From a virus (lineage: Duplodnaviria; Heunggongvirae; Uroviricota; Caudoviricetes): a DNA stretch of 47,028 nucleotides. Numbering within the stretch: position 1 is the first letter of the stretch; each line of letters begins with the position of its first letter. Shown here in pieces: positions 1-19,834 of the stretch. The stretch lies in IMG/VR virus record IMGVR_UViG_2778261425_000003. One strand, given 5' to 3'. Position numbers and translations under genes: made by a program. The notes under the pieces were generated by a model, which saw nothing but the letters and a program-made list of their open reading frames with translations, did not search any database and was not told the DNA's origin.

Positions 1-443
1 TGAAATGTAAAACACTACCTCTGCTGGCGATGGTTGCCACCACTCTGTTTCTGAGCGCCTGCGATGACAGGAGTGATGACCTGAAAGCTATCAGTAAATT
101 TAAGGACCTCACGCCTCCGCGCTTCAGCGATGTGGTCAGTCGGCAGGATGATGTCAGCGAAGAATGGTCACAGGTTGGCTTTTCATCAGGTCTCACCCTG
201 CAGGTCTTACGTACCCGTGAGTCGCCCGATGGCTGCGAGGGCGGTAGTTACTACTACCTCGTGGATATGCAGGAAAAAACCATCCAGCCGCTGATGAATG
301 CGCTGTGTATTGCCGATAACATCAAACTGGAATACCAGGAGGTGACGGACCCGTATACCAAAGAAAAATACTTTGAGTACGCCCATGACGGCAAACTGAT
401 GGGGCAGCTACTGATACCCTCGAACCCTGACAATCAGGAATAA
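1..443 (+). CDS. YafY/YfjS-family prophage lipoprotein; start codon lies about 1 nt upstream of the window
   Basis: Frame is open from position 3 (KCKTLPLLAMVATTLFLSAC), lipobox LFLSAC, stop at 441-443; recalled similarity to CP4-type island lipoproteins. Confidence 0.6.
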   Translation, partial: KCKTLPLLAMVATTLFLSACDDRSDDLKAISKFKDLTPPRFSDVVSRQDDVSEEWSQVGFSSGLTLQVLRTRESPDGCEGGSYYYLVDMQEKTIQPLMNALCIADNIKLEYQEVTDPYTKEKYFEYAHDGKLMGQLLIPSNPDNQE

Positions 444-465
444 AACAACGACAAAGGAGACAAGA

Positions 466-933
466 ATGACAATACTTTCACTAAGTCGGTTTATGCTGGC
501 GGGTGTACTGCTCGCGAGCTTTAATGCCTCTGCTATCCCGGGGTTCTGGCAGCAGGGTTACGGTCAGGGCAATACGGAATACAGCGTGACCGAAGCCAGC
601 GGAAAGACGTTTACCATCAACTGCACAGGGAACCCGGACCAGAATGGTTTCTATCAGCATTCAGTCTTTCTTACCCTTGCCGATGACAAGATGGTCAGTT
701 CGCACGATGACGACACTACTATCACCGTAGTGATGGATCACCAGCAGTACATTATTCCGTCCAGCCTGGGCTGGCGTAACGGCGATAACGCCTGGTTTGA
801 CTTCATCAGCAATATCTCTGAGGCCGGGCAGTTCGACGTCTACGTCAATGACCACAAAGCAGGGACCTTCACTGCGGACCGGAAGAACACTGAGAAAGTT
901 CTGTCCACTCTCGGAGACTGCAGCAACGACTGA
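466..933 (+). CDS. hypothetical exported protein with N-terminal signal peptide, CP4-type island
   Basis: 155-aa ORF with hydrophobic N-terminus ([18 protein letters not shown]), ATG preceded by AAGGAGA. Confidence 0.55.
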
Positions 934-1009
934 TAGTAGTATCTTCCCCAGCAAATCCACCCCGACAGCTAGCAGGCTGCCGGGGTTTTCTTTTATCAGG
1001 AGCCCGAAA

Positions 1010-1249
1010 ATGACCCAATCCGTGTTGCTGCCACCGGGGCCTTTCACCCGGAGACAAGCGCAAGCGGTCACTACCACGTACAGCAATATCACACTCGAAG
1101 ACGACCAGGGCAGTCACTTCCGTCTGGTGGTTCGTGATACTGAAGGCCGGATGGTCTGGCGGGCATGGAACTTTGAGCCGGATGCCGGTGAAGGTCTTAA
1201 CCGCTATATCCGCACCTCAGGCATCCGTACAGACACGGCCACCCGCTGA
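1010..1249 (+). CDS. DUF905-family small protein (YkfF-like)
   Basis: Internal ATG at 1010 with AGGA RBS; 79-aa product [20 protein letters not shown]... typical of CP4 islands. Confidence 0.6.
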
Positions 1250-1346
1250 TCGCGAAGCATTTACCCGCATTCACCTCCCCGAACACACTTTATATCCCCA
1301 TACGCCAGCCATCGCCGCTGGCGTTTTTATTGACGGAGACATACCC

Positions 1347-1805
1347 ATGACAACACAGACGCAGCACGACCTCGCACCCGCTAACCAACCCGAATTTGAA
1401 CTGACCGTCACGCCGGTCCCCGATGAACAGCGTATCGATTTCTGGCCACAGTACTTTGGCGCTATCCCGCAGTGGCTACTCCTGGAGCCGCATATCTTCG
1501 CCTGGATGGACCGCTTCTGTGAGGGCTACAGCGGTGGTATCTGGTCGTTCTACACCCTCAGCAATGGCGGCGCATTTATGTCCCCCGAGCCTGACAACGA
1601 TGAGACATGGCGTCTGTTTAACTGCCTGAACGGTAACGATGCCCAAATGAGTGCAGAAGCAGCAGGTATTGCTGTCTGCCTGATTGCGTATAGCCACCAT
1701 GCCTGCCGTACAGAATGTGACGCGATGACCGCACACTATTACCGCCTGCGGGAGTATGCCATGCAACATCCAGAGGCTCACGCCATTCTGCGTATTATCG
1801 ACTGA
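1347..1805 (+). CDS. antirestriction protein, KlcA/ArdB family (YafX/YfjX-like)
   Basis: ATG at 1347 with GGAGA RBS; 152 aa; recalled family of CP4 island antirestriction proteins. Confidence 0.7.
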   Translation: MTTQTQHDLAPANQPEFELTVTPVPDEQRIDFWPQYFGAIPQWLLLEPHIFAWMDRFCEGYSGGIWSFYTLSNGGAFMSPEPDNDETWRLFNCLNGNDAQMSAEAAGIAVCLIAYSHHACRTECDAMTAHYYRLREYAMQHPEAHAILRIID

Positions 1806-1820
1806 CCGAAGGAGCAACAG

Positions 1821-2297
1821 ATGAAACAGCTTTCCTTTTTACCCGGCGAGATGACGCCACAGGACCGGCGTCTCATTCAGCGGGCGCTCAGGGCTCTGGA
1901 CCGCCACCTGCATGAGCCCGGCGTAGCCTTCACCTCTACCCACGCCGTACGTGAATGGCTGCGACTGCATATGGCCGCGCTTGAGCGGGAAGAGTTCCGG
2001 GTGTTGTATCTGGACAACCAGAATCAGTTGATTGCCCATGAAACGCTCTTCACCGGCACGATTAACCGCACCGAGGTGCATCCCCGGGAGGTGGTCAAAC
2101 GTGCTCTGCACTTCAACGCGGCGGCGGTGATACTCGCGCATAACCATCCTTCCGGCGAGACGACACCTAGCCAGGCCGACAAAACCCTCACGCAGCGACT
2201 GGTTCAGGTGCTTCAGCTGGTGGATATCCGTGTCCCTGACCATCTGATTGTCGGTGGCAGGCAAATCTATTCGTTCGCAGAACACGGTCTGCTTTGA
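1821..2297 (+). CDS. RadC-like JAB-domain protein (YkfG/YeeS family)
   Basis: 158-aa ORF with JAMM motif region HNHPSGETTPSQAD; RBS AAGGAG. Confidence 0.8.
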   Translation: MKQLSFLPGEMTPQDRRLIQRALRALDRHLHEPGVAFTSTHAVREWLRLHMAALEREEFRVLYLDNQNQLIAHETLFTGTINRTEVHPREVVKRALHFNAAAVILAHNHPSGETTPSQADKTLTQRLVQVLQLVDIRVPDHLIVGGRQIYSFAEHGLL

Positions 2298-2305
2298 GGT
2301 ATTAC

Positions 2306-2527
2306 ATGAAAATTATCAGTAAACGCAGGGCAATGACGATATACCGCCAGCATCCTGAGTCCCGAATCTTTCGCTACTGCACCGGCAAATACCAGTGGCA
2401 CGGTAGCGTCTGTCATTACACCGGCAGGGACGTTCCGGATATCGCCGGAGTCCTCGCGGTATACGCCGAACGCCGCCAGGACCGCAATGGGCCCTATACC
2501 TGCCTGATGAGCATCACCCTGAACTGA
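2306..2527 (+). CDS. DUF987-family protein (YeeT/YkfH-like)
   Basis: ATG 2306 six nt after GAGG; 73 aa MKIISKRRAMTIYRQHPES... Confidence 0.6.
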   Translation: MKIISKRRAMTIYRQHPESRIFRYCTGKYQWHGSVCHYTGRDVPDIAGVLAVYAERRQDRNGPYTCLMSITLN

Positions 2528-2545
2528 CAATAGTGGAGAACTGTA

Positions 2546-3225
<680 letters not shown>

Positions 3226-3290
3226 ACATTGCGTACAACCTTCCCGATTTACATTTCTGAACTTCCTCCCTTGTTTACCTATTGCGTAAT

Positions 3291-3326
3291 GCGCCTGCTA
3301 CTACCCGGCAGGCGCGTTATCTTTTT
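3291..3326 (+). terminator. rho-independent terminator downstream of the toxin gene
   Basis: Perfect 8-bp stem GCGCCTGC/GCAGGCGC, 9-nt loop, then GTTATCTTTTT. Confidence 0.6.
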
Positions 3327-3596
3327 ACGGACAAACAATCATGCAACCAGAAGTTGAAGTATTAACCGATCATAATGAGCTAATTTGTTCGAGCTTTATT
3401 GAACACATTGCCAACACATTAAATTTAGGAGTGGTGTACAACTAAACCTGCAGCCAAGGATGTATAGTGAGCGAAGCCCTATCAGGCCTTTTTGGTCAGT
3501 AGATAAGATTGATCTTCGTTGATAGAATTTACTTACACCAGCTGTTACATTAAGATAATTTTTTGGTGGGAGAATGATAAGATCTTACGTAACAAT

Positions 3597-3652
3597 TTGA
3601 TTTTAATGGTGCCGATAATAGGAGTCGAACCTACGACCTTCGCATTACGAAT
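3597..3652. repeat. attR: 56-bp direct repeat of the thrW 3' end (55/56 identical to 45575-45630)
   Basis: ttgatttTaatggtgccgataataggagtcgaacctacgaccttcgcattacgaat repeated at 45575-45630; covers the 3' 46 nt of the tRNA plus 10 nt of flank. Confidence 0.85.
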
Positions 3653-3872
3653 CATAAGAATCCGCTTCTAATTCAAAGTATTACCCCATCAACACTGCGC
3701 TCACACGTCCCACCACATCAAAACATGTAAAGCCTTGCAAGCCATTGTGAGGCCTTATGTGTCTCAGTTTTGTCCCACTACGACCTGCACAGAAAATAAG
3801 AAAATAGCGGTGATATCAAACAGTACAGAAGTCTTTTTTCTTTCAAATGGAGAAACTGATTAACCCGTTTAA

Positions 3873-4100
3873 TTGTACTCCTCATGGGTAATCAGCAGTC
3901 CTCAGAGTAATGGAATGGCAGAAAGATTCGTGAAAACGATGAAGGAAGACTACATCGCGTTCATGCCGAAACCGAATGTAAGAACGGCATTGCATAATCT
4001 TGCAGTGGCGATCGAACATTACAATGAAAACCATCCGCACAGTGCGTTGGGTTATCGCTCTCCGCGAGAATATCGACGTCAGCGGGTAACGTTAACTTAA
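3873..4100 (+). pseudogene. IS3-family (IS2-like) transposase C-terminal fragment
   Basis: 75-aa ORF ending ...[30 protein letters not shown]; only the last part of a transposase, no upstream catalytic region or inverted repeat. Confidence 0.6.
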
Positions 4101-4141
4101 GATACACCCCCTGTCTGGAAATAAGGGGGCAAGAACAATGA

Positions 4142-4885
4142 TCAGATTCCCTGGTGAGTAAGAATTTTACTTTCTGAACTCCTCTGAGAGTATTGACTTG
4201 GAGAAACACCAAAATAACGTCTAAATACATAAGTAAAGTATGAGACACTGGCATAACCACAGACCTTAGCTACTTTACTAATAGGATAACAACGAGTGCT
4301 GAGTAAATATTCAGCCATTTGCATCCTCTCATCAAGTATGATCTTACTGAATGATATCCCCTCTTCTTTCAATTTCCTCTTTAGTAAACTTTCGCTGAGA
4401 TATAATCTTGATGATATATCCTTAAGACGCCATGGTGCAGATAAATCCGTATGAATAATCGTTTTAACTTTAGCCCCTGTGCTTTTCAAACATCCAAACA
4501 GAAATACTCCAAATTGTTTTTCAGAAGAAAATGCAGAGAGACATGTAAAAGCAATAGACTCATCAAAAATTTCTATGTATTCAGCACAGTGATTAGCCCA
4601 ACTAATTAATCCTTTAATTAAACTGAAGTTAGCAAAGTTTATTTTTAAATAAGATGGATATTCCCTACAATCAGAAATATCCCTTAAGTTATTAGCTTTC
4701 AAATAGCGACTAATAAACTCAGCGCCAAAATCCGCCACTATCACTCTTTCAGGATATGTCAGGAAAAAATCTCTAGAGCTAGAGTCGACAAGTACAGATG
4801 AACCTCTCTCCAGAAACACACTTTCTTTTCCGAAATAAATATCAAAGGACTCCAAAATCAATATAACTGAACATGTAGTTGCCAT
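4142..4885 (-). CDS. AraC/XylS-family transcriptional regulator (YdeO/AppY/GadX-like), low-GC cargo gene
   Basis: C-terminal double HTH (..SESLLKRKLKEEGISFSKIILDERMQMAEYLL...CGYASVSYFTYVFRRYFGVSP); ATG 4885 with GGTGG RBS, in-frame ATG also at 4894. Confidence 0.75.
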   Translation of the reverse strand: MATTCSVILILESFDIYFGKESVFLERGSSVLVDSSSRDFFLTYPERVIVADFGAEFISRYLKANNLRDISDCREYPSYLKINFANFSLIKGLISWANHCAEYIEIFDESIAFTCLSAFSSEKQFGVFLFGCLKSTGAKVKTIIHTDLSAPWRLKDISSRLYLSESLLKRKLKEEGISFSKIILDERMQMAEYLLSTRCYPISKVAKVCGYASVSYFTYVFRRYFGVSPSQYSQRSSESKILTHQGI

Positions 4886-5469
4886 ATCATCCACCCAATT
4901 TAACTGAAACCAGGATGAAGTATATGCATATAAAGTTCACTTTGCCAAACTTCAGTATAAAAAACCACATAAAAAATAGGGTGTGATAAAAAATACCGTA
5001 ACAATAAAGCAAAGGATTATAAATTCCGTTACAGTTACAAATGATACTCAAGAAACAATTTCTTAGGAAAAACTTATTTACAGCCAATAAGTAAGACACT
5101 TATATGATATCAAGTTTTCATAAGGCATAACTAGGCTAAATAGCTGCGCCTAATACCGCTACACTTTTGCCAGCCCATGTTTGCCTCCGGGTATTGACCC
5201 CTTCTTTACGCAACTTCAGTTCCCACCACCAACTTTGCGGCAGCTTTGTAGGATCAATGTCTAAAAGAATAATGGTGACCGATAAGAAAACGACTGAATA
5301 ACTGCAGATTTTCGCTCAAAACCTTCCTGTCAGATCCATAGCGAATCAAGTGCTGAATGTCACAGTATCGAACAGAAAACAGTGACGATCTAACCCTTCA
5401 AGAATATTCTACGATTGTTCTGTTTAGGAAAAGCAAGGCGGGAAGTCGGGAGATAAGTCATTGATAAAG

Positions 5470-5535
5470 TGGCGGAGAGAGGGGGATTTGAACCCCCGGT
5501 AGAGTTGCCCCTACTCCGGTTTTCGAGACCGGTCC
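5470..5535 (-). other. truncated tRNA-Ser(CGA) 3' fragment (serU-like); att-site relic, not a functional tRNA
   Basis: Reverse complement reads GACCGGTCTCGAAAACCGG (anticodon arm, CGA), long variable arm, GGGGGTTCAAATCCCCC T-arm, CTCTCTCCGCCA; D-arm and 5' acceptor strand absent. Confidence 0.75.
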
Positions 5536-5615
5536 AATCATCAAACGAAACATAAAATTAATTCACATTATGAGGAAAAGTATCTTTTTTGTACTATGTA
5601 AATTCAAAGACTTAG

Positions 5616-6485
<870 letters not shown>

Positions 6486-6542
6486 GTCTTTAAGTGATAA
6501 GCATAAACCGCAGCACGATCTTGCATACGACGTGCTACGGTT

Positions 6543-7097
6543 TCATTTATCTCCGACCGGAAACTTCTTATACAGTGTCGATATACCAACATCATAGATG
6601 ATCGCCACCTTCTGGCGAGGAACGCCTGATGCAATTAATCGCCCGGCCTGCGCCCATTGTTCTGGTGTAAGTTTGGGACGACGTCCACCAATTCGTCCCT
6701 GTGCGCGAGCAGCCTCCAGTCCAGCTTTTGTTCGTTCAACAATCAGCTCTCGTTCCATTTCAGCCAGGGCCCCCATCACATGAAAGAAAAAACGCCCCAT
6801 CGGTGTGCTGGTATCAATTGAATCCGTCAGACTACGAAAGTTGATGCCTCGTTCGCGCAACTCCTCCACCAACACGACAAGATGCCGCATACTACGCCCC
6901 AGCCGATCCAGCTTCCAGACAACCAGAGTGTCACCTGCCGATAATGTCCTGAGCAGTTTTTTCAGTCCCGGCCTTTCGGACTTTGTGCCGCTTATCTTAT
7001 CTTCAAAAATCAGCTCGCATCCTGCACAGTTCAGCGCATTACGTTGTAGATCTGTGTTCTGGTCATTTGTTGACACACGTACATAGCCAATAAGCAT
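6543..7097 (-). CDS. pin: serine DNA invertase, Pin/Gin/Hin family
   Basis: 184 aa MLIGYVRVSTNDQNTDLQ...; catalytic Ser in YVRVSTNDQ, C-terminal HTH; GGGAG RBS before ATG 7097. Confidence 0.9.
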   Translation of the reverse strand: MLIGYVRVSTNDQNTDLQRNALNCAGCELIFEDKISGTKSERPGLKKLLRTLSAGDTLVVWKLDRLGRSMRHLVVLVEELRERGINFRSLTDSIDTSTPMGRFFFHVMGALAEMERELIVERTKAGLEAARAQGRIGGRRPKLTPEQWAQAGRLIASGVPRQKVAIIYDVGISTLYKKFPVGDK

Positions 7098-7123
7098 GGT
7101 AGATCTCCCTGACAAAAGCAGGA

Positions 7124-7516
7124 ATGATGCCATTTGCTCGTTATTTATGTATTTTTATAAACGTTGGTTTGGGAGAAGCGGCTAAAAGGAATGTAGGGAC
7201 AGGGGCGAATCAGATACCTGATATGGGTAGCTTCACGCTTTCTGTTTCAGGTACTGGATATCAAAAATTACCATCAGGTTTTATTCTTCAGTGGGGCTCA
7301 ATCGGCGCACCAGGCATTGCACAGGATGTAGTAACCCATTTCCCGATTGCATTTCCAAACAGATGTCTGCGTGTTTTGGTCTCACAAGACTACACACCAG
7401 ATAGCGGGGCTGTTGGTTATATTGCCTGTGCAGGTTTTAGTCCCGACCCGGTTAAATTTATATCCAGAGCCAGTACTCCTGGCCTCGGCGCTTCATTTTT
7501 AGCGTTAGGCTGTTAA
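7124..7516 (+). CDS. alternative tail-fibre C-terminal segment (Sv'), promoterless in this orientation
   Basis: Open frame running from the left crossover site; no own start context; would fuse to the constant N-terminus after inversion. Confidence 0.45.
7153..7178. repeat. gix/pix-like invertase crossover site (left)
   Basis: Reverse complement TTCTCCCAAACCAACGTTTATAAAAA matches the inverted copy at 9029-9054 over 14 contiguous nt plus a partial right half. Confidence 0.7.
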
Positions 7517-7537
7517 TTTAGCTATATGGAGTGAAAA

Positions 7538-7978
7538 ATGAATTACATATATTCCGCGACTACAAACTCTTTCTATCCGCTGGAGATGAAAGAGGATTAC
7601 ACTCAAGCTGACTCATGGCCAGATGATGCTGTTGAAGTTGATGAGCAAGTGTATATTGAGTTTTCCGGATTACCGCCGAAAGGAAAAATCCGTATCGCTG
7701 GAGAAAATGGTTTTCCTGCATGGTCTGAAATTCCACCACCAACACATGAGGAACAGATTGCTGCAGCCGAACTGGAAAAGCAGCAACTGATTAATCAGGC
7801 CAACGATTATATGAACAGTAAACAATGGCCTGGTAAAGCGGCTATTGGTCGTCTGAAAGGTGAGGAACTGGCGCAATATAATTTGTGGCTGGATTATCTG
7901 GACGCACTGGAACTGGTTGATACCTCCAGTGCTCCAGATATTGAATGGCCTACGCCTCCGGCAGTTCAGGCCAGATGA
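7538..7978 (+). CDS. tail fibre assembly protein (U'-type), alternative orientation
   Basis: 146 aa MNYIYSATTNSFYPLEMKEDY...; conserved C-terminus DYLDALELVDTSSAPDIEWPTPP shared with the opposite-strand paralogue. Confidence 0.75.
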   Translation: MNYIYSATTNSFYPLEMKEDYTQADSWPDDAVEVDEQVYIEFSGLPPKGKIRIAGENGFPAWSEIPPPTHEEQIAAAELEKQQLINQANDYMNSKQWPGKAAIGRLKGEELAQYNLWLDYLDALELVDTSSAPDIEWPTPPAVQAR

Positions 7979-8552
7979 CATCCGGCGCGGTGCTGGTATC
8001 TGTTGCCGTCACCGCGTCAATGTAATCCAGCACGGCGTTAAGTCGGGTTGTTTCTGCCTGCGTCAACTTCCGTCCGGCCTGTAATTTCAGCTGAATCAGA
8101 CTAATGGAAACCATTGCTGCATCAATCAGTGACTGGCGCTGTGCTTCTGCCGCTTCTACTGCGGCGCTATGCTGTGCCTCAGTATCCGTCACCCATTTCT
8201 CACCATCCCATTTATCATATGGCGTTAACGGGGCGATAGTGGTTGTATTTTCAGGGTAATCACCCGGAGCTGTGATTTCTTTGGCGTCTCCCGTTTCGGT
8301 GTTATAGACGATTTCACCGCGATGGTCTGACACATATTCCCATGATTTTAAATCCACAGAACGGCAAATTGTATAACCAGCTTTATGTGTAACTGGTGCA
8401 TCTAAACAAGAACATGCTGGGATACCGACGCCAACCGCAAGATATTCAGTTGATGTGGAAATATATTCCCGCGTTTCACCATCATAGTTATAAACGGTAA
8501 TATCCCCTGCCTTTGTAGCAACAAGTCCACTATTTAATATTGCTTTATCCAT
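7950..8552 (-). CDS. tail fibre assembly protein (U-type), currently expressed orientation
   Basis: 200 aa; C-terminus LDYIDAVTATDTSTAPDVIWPELPEA; directly downstream of the tail-fibre gene. Confidence 0.75.
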   Translation of the reverse strand: MDKAILNSGLVATKAGDITVYNYDGETREYISTSTEYLAVGVGIPACSCLDAPVTHKAGYTICRSVDLKSWEYVSDHRGEIVYNTETGDAKEITAPGDYPENTTTIAPLTPYDKWDGEKWVTDTEAQHSAAVEAAEAQRQSLIDAAMVSISLIQLKLQAGRKLTQAETTRLNAVLDYIDAVTATDTSTAPDVIWPELPEA

Positions 8553-17615: not shown

Positions 17616-19111
17616 TATGCAGACTCCTCTGAATACTGAAGACGGAACTGGTTAACCACGGCAAAGACACGCAACTGGTTAACATAGTCAGGCGGGAACA
17701 GCGTGTTCAGGCGGTTCGGATCGCTGGCATCACGCTCCACAACCAGGTACTGCTTAAACAGTTCGTAGTTTTCCACGATCCCCGCACGCTCAAGCTGACG
17801 GTAGGTTGCCAGCAGTTCCCCTTTGATCACCGCCGGGGTGACAATCGCCTGACCGGGACCAAAGCGGGTACCGTCACTGGCAAGCTTGTGACGCCCGTAC
17901 TTACTGGTAATGACGGATTTCAGTTTGCGCAGTACATACGAGCTGGTATGCAGAGTCTCACTGTCTAGGTAGCTGTTATCCGCAATCCCGTAAGCGTTTT
18001 TCCTGTACGTGGTGACATCACGCTGAATGCGCAGTACCCCGCTTTCGACATACGCCGTTGCCACGCCATGAGACAGCAGGGTCTGTTGTTCGGTCATCGT
18101 GAACCGTTTCCCCTTCGGCGCAGGCAGCATACCCACCAGCTCACCGGTCTGCGTGGGACGTGCCGGATCGTTGCGAATAAACACCGCTGCGCGGGCGGTA
18201 CGGCTTGCCGCCAGTTCGTCGGCAGGCGTCTGGGTCTCTTTTTCGTACCCCGCCAGGGTAATGTGCTGCTGGTTAAACTGGTCACCTGCGGTCACCAGTT
18301 CTGACAGCGTGCCGATCTTTGCCGTATACACATGACCATACAGCTGACGCGCATAGCTCCAGCGACCGCTGGTATCGTTCATCTCGGTCACCAGCGTGTT
18401 AACGGAGGCCGTGTCGTTGAACGGCAGACCGATATAATCAAACGGCTCATCCGCCATTGCAGCCACCGCGCCGGTGAGAACCGGAGCACCCGTTCCGGCG
18501 GTACCCGTCGCCACGGCAATCTGTACGCCCGCTGGCAGCACTTCGCCCCCACCAAAGCCGTAGTAATTGAGGCTGACAGGAATTTCATTCCCGCAAAGCC
18601 CCTTATGACGCGCGGTCAGTGTGACCACGCCTGCCGAAGATGAAGCCGTAAACGGCAGGGCCGGAACGGCATTGATGGCATCTTTGATACTGCTGGCAAT
18701 CGTCGTGACGTTATCGCCGTTGGTCACCGGAGCCTGCACGCGGGTACGTCCCACATAGACATTCACCGTGCCGGTTTCGGTTGCCGCCCCGGTCACCGTC
18801 AGCGTAACCGTTGCCGCCGCGCCTGTGGATTCAGGAACGGCAATCACATACAGCTCGCCAAACGGGTCGGTCTGGCGATAAGCCTCAACCATACGCGCCA
18901 GCTGACTTCCCGCACCACAAATCTGGCGTGCATAGTCTGCCGACGGCATCAGTACCAGACTGTTGGCAACAATCTCTGCACCGTTATTGGCATGACCAAT
19001 CAGCAGCGATGCTCCGCTGTCCTGTGCAGTATTCGCCGCCTGATTATCCATTTCCGCATAAAACAGCGGAACCAGCGTATTCGACGGAATGGTGTTAAAG
19101 CTTATCGTCAT
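17615..19111 (-). CDS. tail sheath protein
   Basis: 498 aa; size and position typical of Mu L-type sheath. Confidence 0.8.
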   Translation of the reverse strand: MTISFNTIPSNTLVPLFYAEMDNQAANTAQDSGASLLIGHANNGAEIVANSLVLMPSADYARQICGAGSQLARMVEAYRQTDPFGELYVIAVPESTGAAATVTLTVTGAATETGTVNVYVGRTRVQAPVTNGDNVTTIASSIKDAINAVPALPFTASSSAGVVTLTARHKGLCGNEIPVSLNYYGFGGGEVLPAGVQIAVATGTAGTGAPVLTGAVAAMADEPFDYIGLPFNDTASVNTLVTEMNDTSGRWSYARQLYGHVYTAKIGTLSELVTAGDQFNQQHITLAGYEKETQTPADELAASRTARAAVFIRNDPARPTQTGELVGMLPAPKGKRFTMTEQQTLLSHGVATAYVESGVLRIQRDVTTYRKNAYGIADNSYLDSETLHTSSYVLRKLKSVITSKYGRHKLASDGTRFGPGQAIVTPAVIKGELLATYRQLERAGIVENYELFKQYLVVERDASDPNRLNTLFPPDYVNQLRVFAVVNQFRLQYSEESA

Positions 19112-19265
19112 CGGTGTTCACCTTTTTATTCACGCGCCGGATATCACCCGCTACTTCACGGCGCAGCCAGTAGTTGTTCTCGTCAACATTTCGCCCTTCG
19201 GCGGGCAAAAGGTCGCCGCGGGCAGGGTCAGGAACTGACCGCCCTTTAACAGGTTTGACAAACAT
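19095..19265 (-). CDS. small hypothetical protein upstream of the sheath gene
   Basis: 56-aa ORF MFVKPVKGRSVPDPARGDLLPAEGRN..., overlaps the sheath start by 17 nt. Confidence 0.35.
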   Translation of the reverse strand: MFVKPVKGRSVPDPARGDLLPAEGRNVDENNYWLRREVAGDIRRVNKKVNTDDDKL

Positions 19266-19273
19266 GAGGATCC

Positions 19274-19834
19274 TCAGGAAGGAAGGGTTATTTCGGTGTG
19301 ATGTTCGATATCGCCGTCAGGCCCGTTACCGGGCTCGAGATAATCAACATCAATCGCCAGCGTTTGCAGTTCATCCAGACTGTTCAGATCATCCTGCTGG
19401 CGGGTATCGTCTTCAGTCAGCTCGCTGATGACCGAAAAATCGAACTGATAAATCAGCTCATGACGATTCAGATCCAGCAGCGTGCCGCCGTCATAGGTAA
19501 TCGGGTTACCGCACGCTTCCGGGTTCCAGCCCAGCAGGGCCTTAAAGAGCATCTGCCGGACATCGTCCACCACATCATACGAGGCAAACTGACCGCGCTC
19601 ATCACGCCCGTTACTTAGTATGACAACCACGGAGAAGCCCTCTTTCAGCTCCTGCCAGTAGTCGGTCTGGCTTTTGTTTTCTCCCGGAGAGTCATCACCC
19701 GGTACCACATACGCCGCCGGGAGTCTCAGCTTTCCGACCTCCGGCAGATTTTTGAACTGTGCCGCGCCTGCCACCCGGTTTTCAAAATACGGGCAGCGGG
19801 CACGCAGCGCAGCAATAACAGGCGTCAGTTTCAT
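19274..19834 (-). CDS. tail completion/neck protein (Mu gp37/38-like)
   Basis: 186 aa; position between head-tail joining genes and sheath. Confidence 0.5.
   Translation of the reverse strand: MKLTPVIAALRARCPYFENRVAGAAQFKNLPEVGKLRLPAAYVVPGDDSPGENKSQTDYWQELKEGFSVVVILSNGRDERGQFASYDVVDDVRQMLFKALLGWNPEACGNPITYDGGTLLDLNRHELIYQFDFSVISELTEDDTRQQDDLNSLDELQTLAIDVDYLEPGNGPDGDIEHHTEITLPS

Follow-up and report, generated by a model that had tools for sequence, protein, structure and literature searches.

The gene at positions 4142-4885 of IMG/VR virus record IMGVR_UViG_2778261425_000003, a stretch of 47,028 nucleotides that is referred to as the window in the following, is very probably patE, a host-directed moron regulator carried by a temperate SfV-type phage integrated at thrW, in which it lies between attR and the module of tail-fibre and invertase genes. 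As the characterised PatE, the regulator is already known and not new, which had not been recognised in an initial annotation describing an AraC-family regulator carried as prophage cargo. Our identification is based on the near-identity of the protein to ECs_0287 of Escherichia coli O157:H7 Sakai, the position of the corresponding gene in strain EDL933, the place assigned to Z0321 in the literature and a shared gene order.

Identity and integrity of the patE gene

The window protein was identical to ECs_0287 of the Sakai prophage Sp1, which is located at thrW, in 244 of 247 residues (98.8%) without gaps over the full length, and both proteins share one 90%-identity cluster of 1788 members. 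In EDL933 the gene (WP_000246059.1) was found at the same place (309,101-309,844), where it is the sole AraC-family gene of the thrW prophage remnant CP-933H (O-island 8, OI-8). Z0321 has been described as 'putative regulator (prophage CP-933H)' of O-island 8 (PMC2907692). According to the review PMC10877973, which cites the original work, z0321 on OI-8 was named PatE and characterised in enterohaemorrhagic E. coli (EHEC) by Bender et al. 2012. Moreover, the order tail fibre, tfa, pinE, a gene for a GIY-YIG protein of 257 amino acids, patE, insertion sequence (IS) 3 remnant and prophage end is common to the window, Sakai Sp1 and EDL933, and the nucleotide identity over window positions 3890-7200 is 97%. 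The full-length near-identity to the EHEC protein and the conserved context at the att end of a thrW prophage both place the gene in the PatE orthologue group. In the cluster look-up 'AraC family transcriptional regulator' was the only source name and the locus-tag link was not confirmed there; since the public annotation goes no further than this name, the link to PatE is easily missed.

The gene and the DNA preceding it comprise the following features.

4142-4885, minus strand: patE, an open reading frame (ORF) with Pfam HTH_AraC and HTH_18 matches and 244/247 identity to ECs_0287; GC content 34.7%
4886-5135, minus strand: patE-specific upstream region with 29.6% GC, conserved with patE in all contexts examined
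4919-4948, minus strand: candidate promoter TTGGCA-18 nt-TATACT, the best-scoring site of a consensus scan, about 34 nt upstream of the ATG

The sole long ORF of the interval in the six-frame ORF list extends over 4142-4894 on the minus strand and encodes 250 amino acids from a GTG. From the in-frame ATG at 4885, which directly follows a GGTGGA Shine-Dalgarno-like motif, patE encodes 247 amino acids, and the RefSeq coding sequence on homologous DNA elsewhere likewise has 744 nt. The coordinates of the initial annotation match this coding sequence, and the low GC content that it had emphasised was confirmed, as patE has 34.7% GC compared with 49.5% for the whole window and 49.7% for the remaining prophage. 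The window gene has neither frameshifts nor internal stop codons. Compared with the studied Sakai allele it carries V16I, D86N and V177I only, all three of them conservative, and positions 16 and 177 show conservative variation among relatives. Inactivating mutations, which had been considered at the outset, were therefore not apparent in the full-length ORF when it was set against the studied allele. The exact window allele was present on 61 contigs, and the contexts examined (eight distinct ones) were all of the SfV-type at thrW. We infer that the window allele would behave in its host like the O157 allele.

Family placement and proposed function of PatE

The protein belongs to the AraC/XylS type, as assumed initially. 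Both Pfam models matched residues 161-238, the AraC DNA-binding domain, well above their gathering scores, HTH_AraC (PF00165) with 60.4 bits at a cut-off of 26.6 and HTH_18 (PF12833) with 58.6 bits at a cut-off of 33.6. The best NCBIfam models were YdeO (4.7e-43, full length), GadX, HilD and HilC, all far under their equivalog cut-offs. For the YdeO equivalog NF007407 the score was 147.6 versus 348 bits and for the GadX equivalog NF007432 it was 110.2 versus 500 bits, the latter model aligning only to residues 105-242 in the C-terminal half. In pairwise alignments PatE was 38% identical to PsrA, 34% to YdeO, 33% to GadW, 28% to AppY, 27% to GadX and 26% to EnvY. PsrA was represented in this comparison by ECs_1087 of Sp4 with its ORF extended to 237 amino acids.

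In a neighbour-joining tree PatE, with members down to 79% identity, was placed beside a sister clade, followed by PsrA and then by YdeO, GadW and AppY. The sister clade consists of proteins of 243 amino acids which are 51-53% identical to PatE and occur in lambda-like phages such as 1H12; no characterisation of this clade was found. Its genes are located close to the right-hand end of the genome in many lambda-like phages (e.g. NC_049947.1, 43556-44236), and its protein clusters have more than 1000 members. An assignment of these 243-residue proteins to PsrA/PsrB was considered and rejected, as they are only 38-40% identical to PsrA and the tree places them as the sister of PatE.

A search with PatE by tblastn for PsrA in the Sakai prophage Sp6 (the espK/espN phage) gave no match. 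A 2026 paper locates psrA as ecs1087 in Sp4, and the gene was then found there. The RefSeq psrA (ECs_1087, 18677-19390 of the Sakai region examined) has 195 amino acids, but its frame is open upstream to give 237 amino acids starting with MVVVCSVIM. The annotated start of psrA looks too short, since the 237-residue product aligns with the xxCSVI N-terminus of PatE, YdeO, GadW and AppY.

By sequence, the closest solved structures were the GadX DNA-binding domain (4e-24), Rns, CsvR and ToxT. The AlphaFold model of PatE, calculated from an alignment of 13 sequences, was of moderate quality with a mean predicted local distance difference test (pLDDT) score of 71.6. It comprises a C-terminal domain of seven helices across residues 136-238 with pLDDT 79-94 and an N-terminal half with pLDDT 39-77. 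The modelled DNA-binding domain superimposed on that of GadX (3mkl) with 1.5 A over 105 columns at 43% identity. In Foldseek searches Rns, CsvR and ToxT were the best full-length matches with E of about 1e-10, at a template modelling (TM) score of only 0.40 and a root-mean-square deviation of 13-15 A, the N-terminal model being weak. PatE is a two-domain protein with an N-terminal regulatory/dimerisation domain of about 135 amino acids and a C-terminal double helix-turn-helix AraC domain. Taken together, the NCBIfam matches to YdeO, GadX and HilD, the sequence matches to the solved structures of GadX, Rns and ToxT and the grouping with PsrA, YdeO, GadW and AppY agree with the acid-resistance and virulence regulator subfamily that had been proposed.

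Functional results have been described for the O157 allele. Citing Bender et al. 2012, the review PMC10877973 reports that expression of gadB, gadC, gadE and hdeAB was lower in a patE mutant and that 18 genes, including six genes within the enterocyte effacement locus (LEE), are negatively regulated by PatE. According to the same review, PatE acts at the hdeA promoter via a cis-element between -132 and -45, and type III secretion is repressed by PsrA and PsrB through their activation of gadE and hdeA (PMC10877973). The initial suggestion that phage-borne regulators of this type rewire host regulons is hence documented there for exactly this gene. AppY, PsrB and PatE have been cited together as prophage AraC-type regulators activating the AR2 acid-resistance system, and the regulation by YdeO, GadW, GadX and AppY comes together at gadE and the acid fitness island (PMC10057817). 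Expression of Z0321 was 6-fold RpoS-dependent (PMC2907692), expression of ECs0287 increased by 2.9 log2 units as cells passed into stationary phase, and the O157 allele was well expressed in stationary phase with a log2 signal of 12.4 (PMC2241611).

We propose that patE would be expressed mainly at entry into stationary phase, in an RpoS-dependent manner and from a promoter within the AT-rich 250 bp that precede the gene. At hdeA and gadE the protein would recognise AT-rich operators, and it would activate the acid fitness island with increased transcription of gadE, gadBC and hdeAB, probably by countering H-NS silencing as its family suggests. Acid survival of the lysogen would be improved through PatE, and in LEE-positive hosts LEE gene expression would be lowered. 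Through PatE, the central circuit of acid resistance in E. coli (gadE, gadBC, hdeAB) is connected to a mobile phage, and in LEE-positive strains type III secretion genes are affected as well. A lysogen may therefore survive stomach acid better.

The region 4886-5135 presumably holds the patE promoter or regulatory region and is likely a target of H-NS. Promoter mapping had been suggested for the AT-rich DNA at 4886-5460; this proposal holds for 4886-5135, which is specific to patE, but not for the remainder, as 5136-5191 is an IS630 scar and the DNA from 5192 on is a serU/chromosomal fragment. Because the cassette contains this scar and the serU flank, 4886-5460 is a mosaic. No terminator was found by the scan at the 3' end of patE; terminator-like matches lay within the coding region or in attR-side DNA (3732-3766). 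An Rfam scan of the whole window detected thrW only and no known small RNA near patE.

Several points weigh against this interpretation of the window gene. The link of Z0321 to ECs_0287 was drawn from position and annotation and not from a locus-tag table, the functional statements on PatE come from reviews and citing papers on the O157 allele, and the behaviour of the window allele in its own strain would be an extrapolation from that allele. The virulence branch may not apply, as it depends on the presence of the LEE in the host. In addition, H-NS could silence the upstream DNA of about 30% GC in many situations, the number of promoter sites upstream of patE was not above chance (5 found versus 6.2 expected from shuffled sequence), and D86N replaces a residue that hardly varies within the PatE clade and its sister.

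The last three points would also fit an intact patE that is a silent passenger, silenced by H-NS or weakened for instance by D86N, so that lysogeny has no regulatory effect. The high AT content of both the gene and its upstream region and the flanking IS scars, which show that the region has been subject to decay, are in line with this explanation. Nevertheless, we regard it as unlikely. Position 86 is variable (P, T, N) in the functional relatives YdeO, GadW, AppY and PsrA, the upstream 250 bp are conserved with patE in every context, and the near-identical O157 allele is expressed in stationary phase in an RpoS-dependent manner (PMC2241611, PMC2907692). Moreover, the ORF is full length, and of 5426 complete E. 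coli genomes 654-658 (about 12%) contained patE, nearly always as a single copy and always with at least 95% nucleotide identity; the gene is also carried by viable phages. Such conservation fits a maintained gene. The carriers comprise O157:H7 as well as many non-O157 strains from humans, animals and water.

Prophage context and the patE cassette

The gene is carried as cargo of a prophage. The prophage borders, the neighbouring genes and the parts of the cassette are listed here.

3589-3652, minus strand: attR, a direct repeat consisting of the duplicated 3' part of thrW and a few flanking bases; 56/56 identical to thrW of a homologous E. coli region
3873-4100, plus strand: IS3-family (ISEc48-like) transposase remnant, C-terminal part, identified as an ORF and from RefSeq and Sakai annotations of homologous DNA
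5136-5191, no strand assigned: IS630-family remnant of 56 bp, matching IS630-family transposase genes in many genomes by blastn with up to 98% identity
5192-5535, minus strand: E. coli core chromosome with 66 nt of the tRNA-Ser gene serU (3' end) and 278 bp of downstream flank, 97.1% identical over 344 bp to K-12 positions 2,043,190-2,043,533; far border of the cassette
5712-6485, plus strand: GIY-YIG protein of 257 amino acids, PD-T4-3 anti-phage defence family (PADLOC PD-T4-3, E 2.4e-140, full length)
6543-7097, minus strand: pinE-type DNA invertase, RefSeq pinE (555 nt) in two 98%-identical regions; last conserved phage gene before the cargo slot
44407-45570, plus strand: SfV-type tyrosine integrase at the attL end, an ORF abutting thrW
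45585-45660, minus strand: tRNA-Thr(CGU) gene thrW, the integration site on the attL side, detected by ARAGORN and with 71.8 bits by the Rfam tRNA model; sole tRNA gene in the window

A 64-nt direct repeat (3589-3652 and 45567-45630, 94% identical), which includes the 3' part of thrW, brackets a prophage of 41,978 bp. The integrase lies at the thrW end, and patE is found at the opposite end, attR in the lambda convention, 490 bp inside the att repeat. Window positions 43567-45630 match Shigella phage SfV (xis-int-attP region) with 99.0% identity, the head and tail genes share 96-97.5% identity with SfI, SfII, SfIV and SfV and are colinear with an annotated intact prophage of strain MS 69-1, and the early region is HK97/HK106-like lambdoid. 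The carrier (window 5536-45660) is therefore apparently a complete SfV-type phage of about 42 kb. Accordingly, patE is found here on a potentially transmissible phage, beyond the decayed O157 remnant in which it was studied. In strain MS 69-1 the patE region occurs both in the chromosome (NZ_CP146675.1) and in a separate record of 64,057 bp (NZ_CP146678.1), which may reflect excision or duplication of the prophage or an artefact of the assembly.

In SfV the genes gtrV-gtrB-gtrA for O-antigen modification and serotype conversion are located between the tail-fibre assembly gene and attP. The equivalent slot of the window phage contains the pin invertase with an invertible tail-fibre segment, the GIY-YIG gene and patE, and no gtr genes. 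With its location inside the att-bounded prophage, in the slot of gtrABV in SfV, and with its deviant GC content, patE has the properties of a moron. The description of the regulator as prophage cargo at the attR end beside an IS transposase remnant was thus corroborated in each part: the att repeats enclose the gene, the thrW-derived repeat at 3589-3652 lies next to it, and the remnant at 3873-4100 on the plus strand is the C-terminal part of an IS3-family transposase. For homologous DNA this remnant is named 'integrase core domain-containing protein, missing N-terminus' in RefSeq and 'ISEc48 Family: IS3 partial' in Sakai; compared with Sakai, the alignment revealed an additional deletion of about 260 bp.

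The GIY-YIG gene, named 'LEM-3-like GIY-YIG domain-containing protein' in RefSeq, accompanies patE in thrW prophages of the SfV type, O157 Sp1/CP-933H among them, but is not its companion in lambdoid carriers. The adjoining region 6543-8552 contains the pinE-type invertase together with opposed genes for tail-fibre C-termini and tail-fibre assembly (plus strand, 7124-7516 and 7538-7978; minus strand, 7950-8552) and is, by this arrangement, a putative invertible host-range segment like those of e14 and Mu.

These neighbours raise the question whether PatE serves the phage itself, in the control of PD-T4-3, of the pin/tail-fibre switch or of the lysis-lysogeny decision, with an incidental effect on acid resistance. 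The gene is always linked to phage DNA, PD-T4-3 and pinE lie next to it in SfV-type carriers, and the literature examined contained no experiment on the regulation of phage genes by PatE. However, the cassette 3890-5531 also occurs in lambdoid siphophages without adjoining PD-T4-3 and pin genes and therefore lacks a conserved phage partner, and the slot is the classical moron slot that holds the gtr genes in SfV. Furthermore, the reported PatE targets are chromosomal (PMC10877973), and so is the acid fitness island, on which its closest relatives PsrA, YdeO, GadW and AppY act (PMC10877973; PMC10057817). We therefore consider a phage-directed role very unlikely and favour PatE as a regulator of host genes.

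Beyond attR a second thrW-associated element follows in tandem at window positions 1-3300. It is CP4-6-like, 98.8% identical to the annotated homologous region, and carries YfjS/YfjT-type genes, ykfF, an antirestriction gene, a RadC-like JAB gene, a DUF987 gene and a yafW/ykfI type IV toxin-antitoxin system. Since this element lies immediately beyond the prophage, IS remnants are present on either side of patE and the cassette includes a chromosomal serU fragment, patE might be regarded as part of this island or of an IS composite abutting the prophage instead of as phage cargo. Such an affiliation is very unlikely, as the att repeat 3589-3652 separates patE from the CP4-6-like element and leaves it on the phage side. 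The neighbour beyond attR varies (CP4-6-like element, P4-like Sp2, paoD and others) but patE stays phage-linked, and the cassette is present in isolated plaque-forming phage genomes. Its status as phage cargo is therefore retained in our interpretation.

In the sense of patE, the cassette consists of the serU fragment with its flank, the IS630 scar, the 250-bp AT-rich region, patE and the IS3 remnant, so that IS scars lie on either side of the gene. The block common to the window and the lambdoid phages ev099 and mEp332 spans window positions 3890-5531, with the homology ending at 5529-5531. Three isolated lambdoid phages, ev099 (Radostvirus), mEp332 and PhiR70_1, carry patE with 97-98% protein identity between the tail-fibre genes and att/int. 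In addition, strains 13P477T and E2 contain att-lambda prophages next to ybhB/bio with patE at their end.

The serU 3' fragment with its native flank resembles the attR junction of a serU-integrated element, and aberrant excision may therefore have led to the capture of the cassette. We tentatively suggest, with somewhat more doubt than confidence, that it is a fossil of specialised transduction: a phage at serU would have excised aberrantly together with patE, and the block would then have been passed on by recombination between unrelated virion types, the lambda-like siphoviruses (att-lambda) and the SfV-type myoviruses (thrW); in the latter it shares the former gtr slot with PD-T4-3. In the eight distinct contexts of the window allele and in further contexts of other alleles at att-lambda prophage ends, patE was not found at a native serU locus, and the limited literature examined contained no account of the cassette anatomy. 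If this origin is correct, one att-proximal slot would be used by phages for serotype conversion, phage defence or the rewiring of a stress regulon. The complete SfV-type carrier, the pairing of patE with PD-T4-3 in the former gtr slot and the cassette scarred by serU and IS sequences may be new. The finding bears on the spread of acid tolerance among commensal and pathogenic strains and does not establish a new principle.

Comparison with known systems

The closest known system is PatE of O157:H7 on CP-933H/Sp1, which shares with the window gene the thrW site, the neighbouring pinE, the 257-residue GIY-YIG gene, the IS3 remnant and the same upstream 250 bp. In contrast, the O157 carrier is a decayed remnant of 10.6 kb, whereas the window carrier appears to be a complete prophage. 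Moreover, the IS3 remnant is shorter in the window than in Sakai, and the element beyond attR is CP4-6-like in the window and the P4-like Sp2 in O157. The lambdoid carriers have the same cassette with serU fragment, IS630 scar, upstream region, patE and IS3 remnant at the same relative position. However, they are lambda-like siphoviruses with J/Lom/Stf tails which use other sites such as att-lambda and lack PD-T4-3 and pin beside patE.

PsrA and PsrB of EHEC resemble PatE as prophage-borne AraC-type regulators with the N-terminal xxCSVI motif and in their overall length. In its location PsrA differs from PatE, as its gene lies in the lambdoid Sp4, adjacent to tRNA genes and pchA and downstream of an antiterminator gene, and not at an att end. 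YdeO, GadW, GadX and AppY, the AR2 regulators of K-12, belong to the same subfamily and have the same architecture as PatE, but differ from it in genomic location and in upstream signals; YdeO is controlled by EvgAS. AppY is likewise prophage-borne, on DLP12. More distant are Rns, CsvR and ToxT, virulence regulators of the AraC family with a fatty-acid-binding N-terminal domain, which match PatE by sequence with 1e-15 and share about 20% identity with it.

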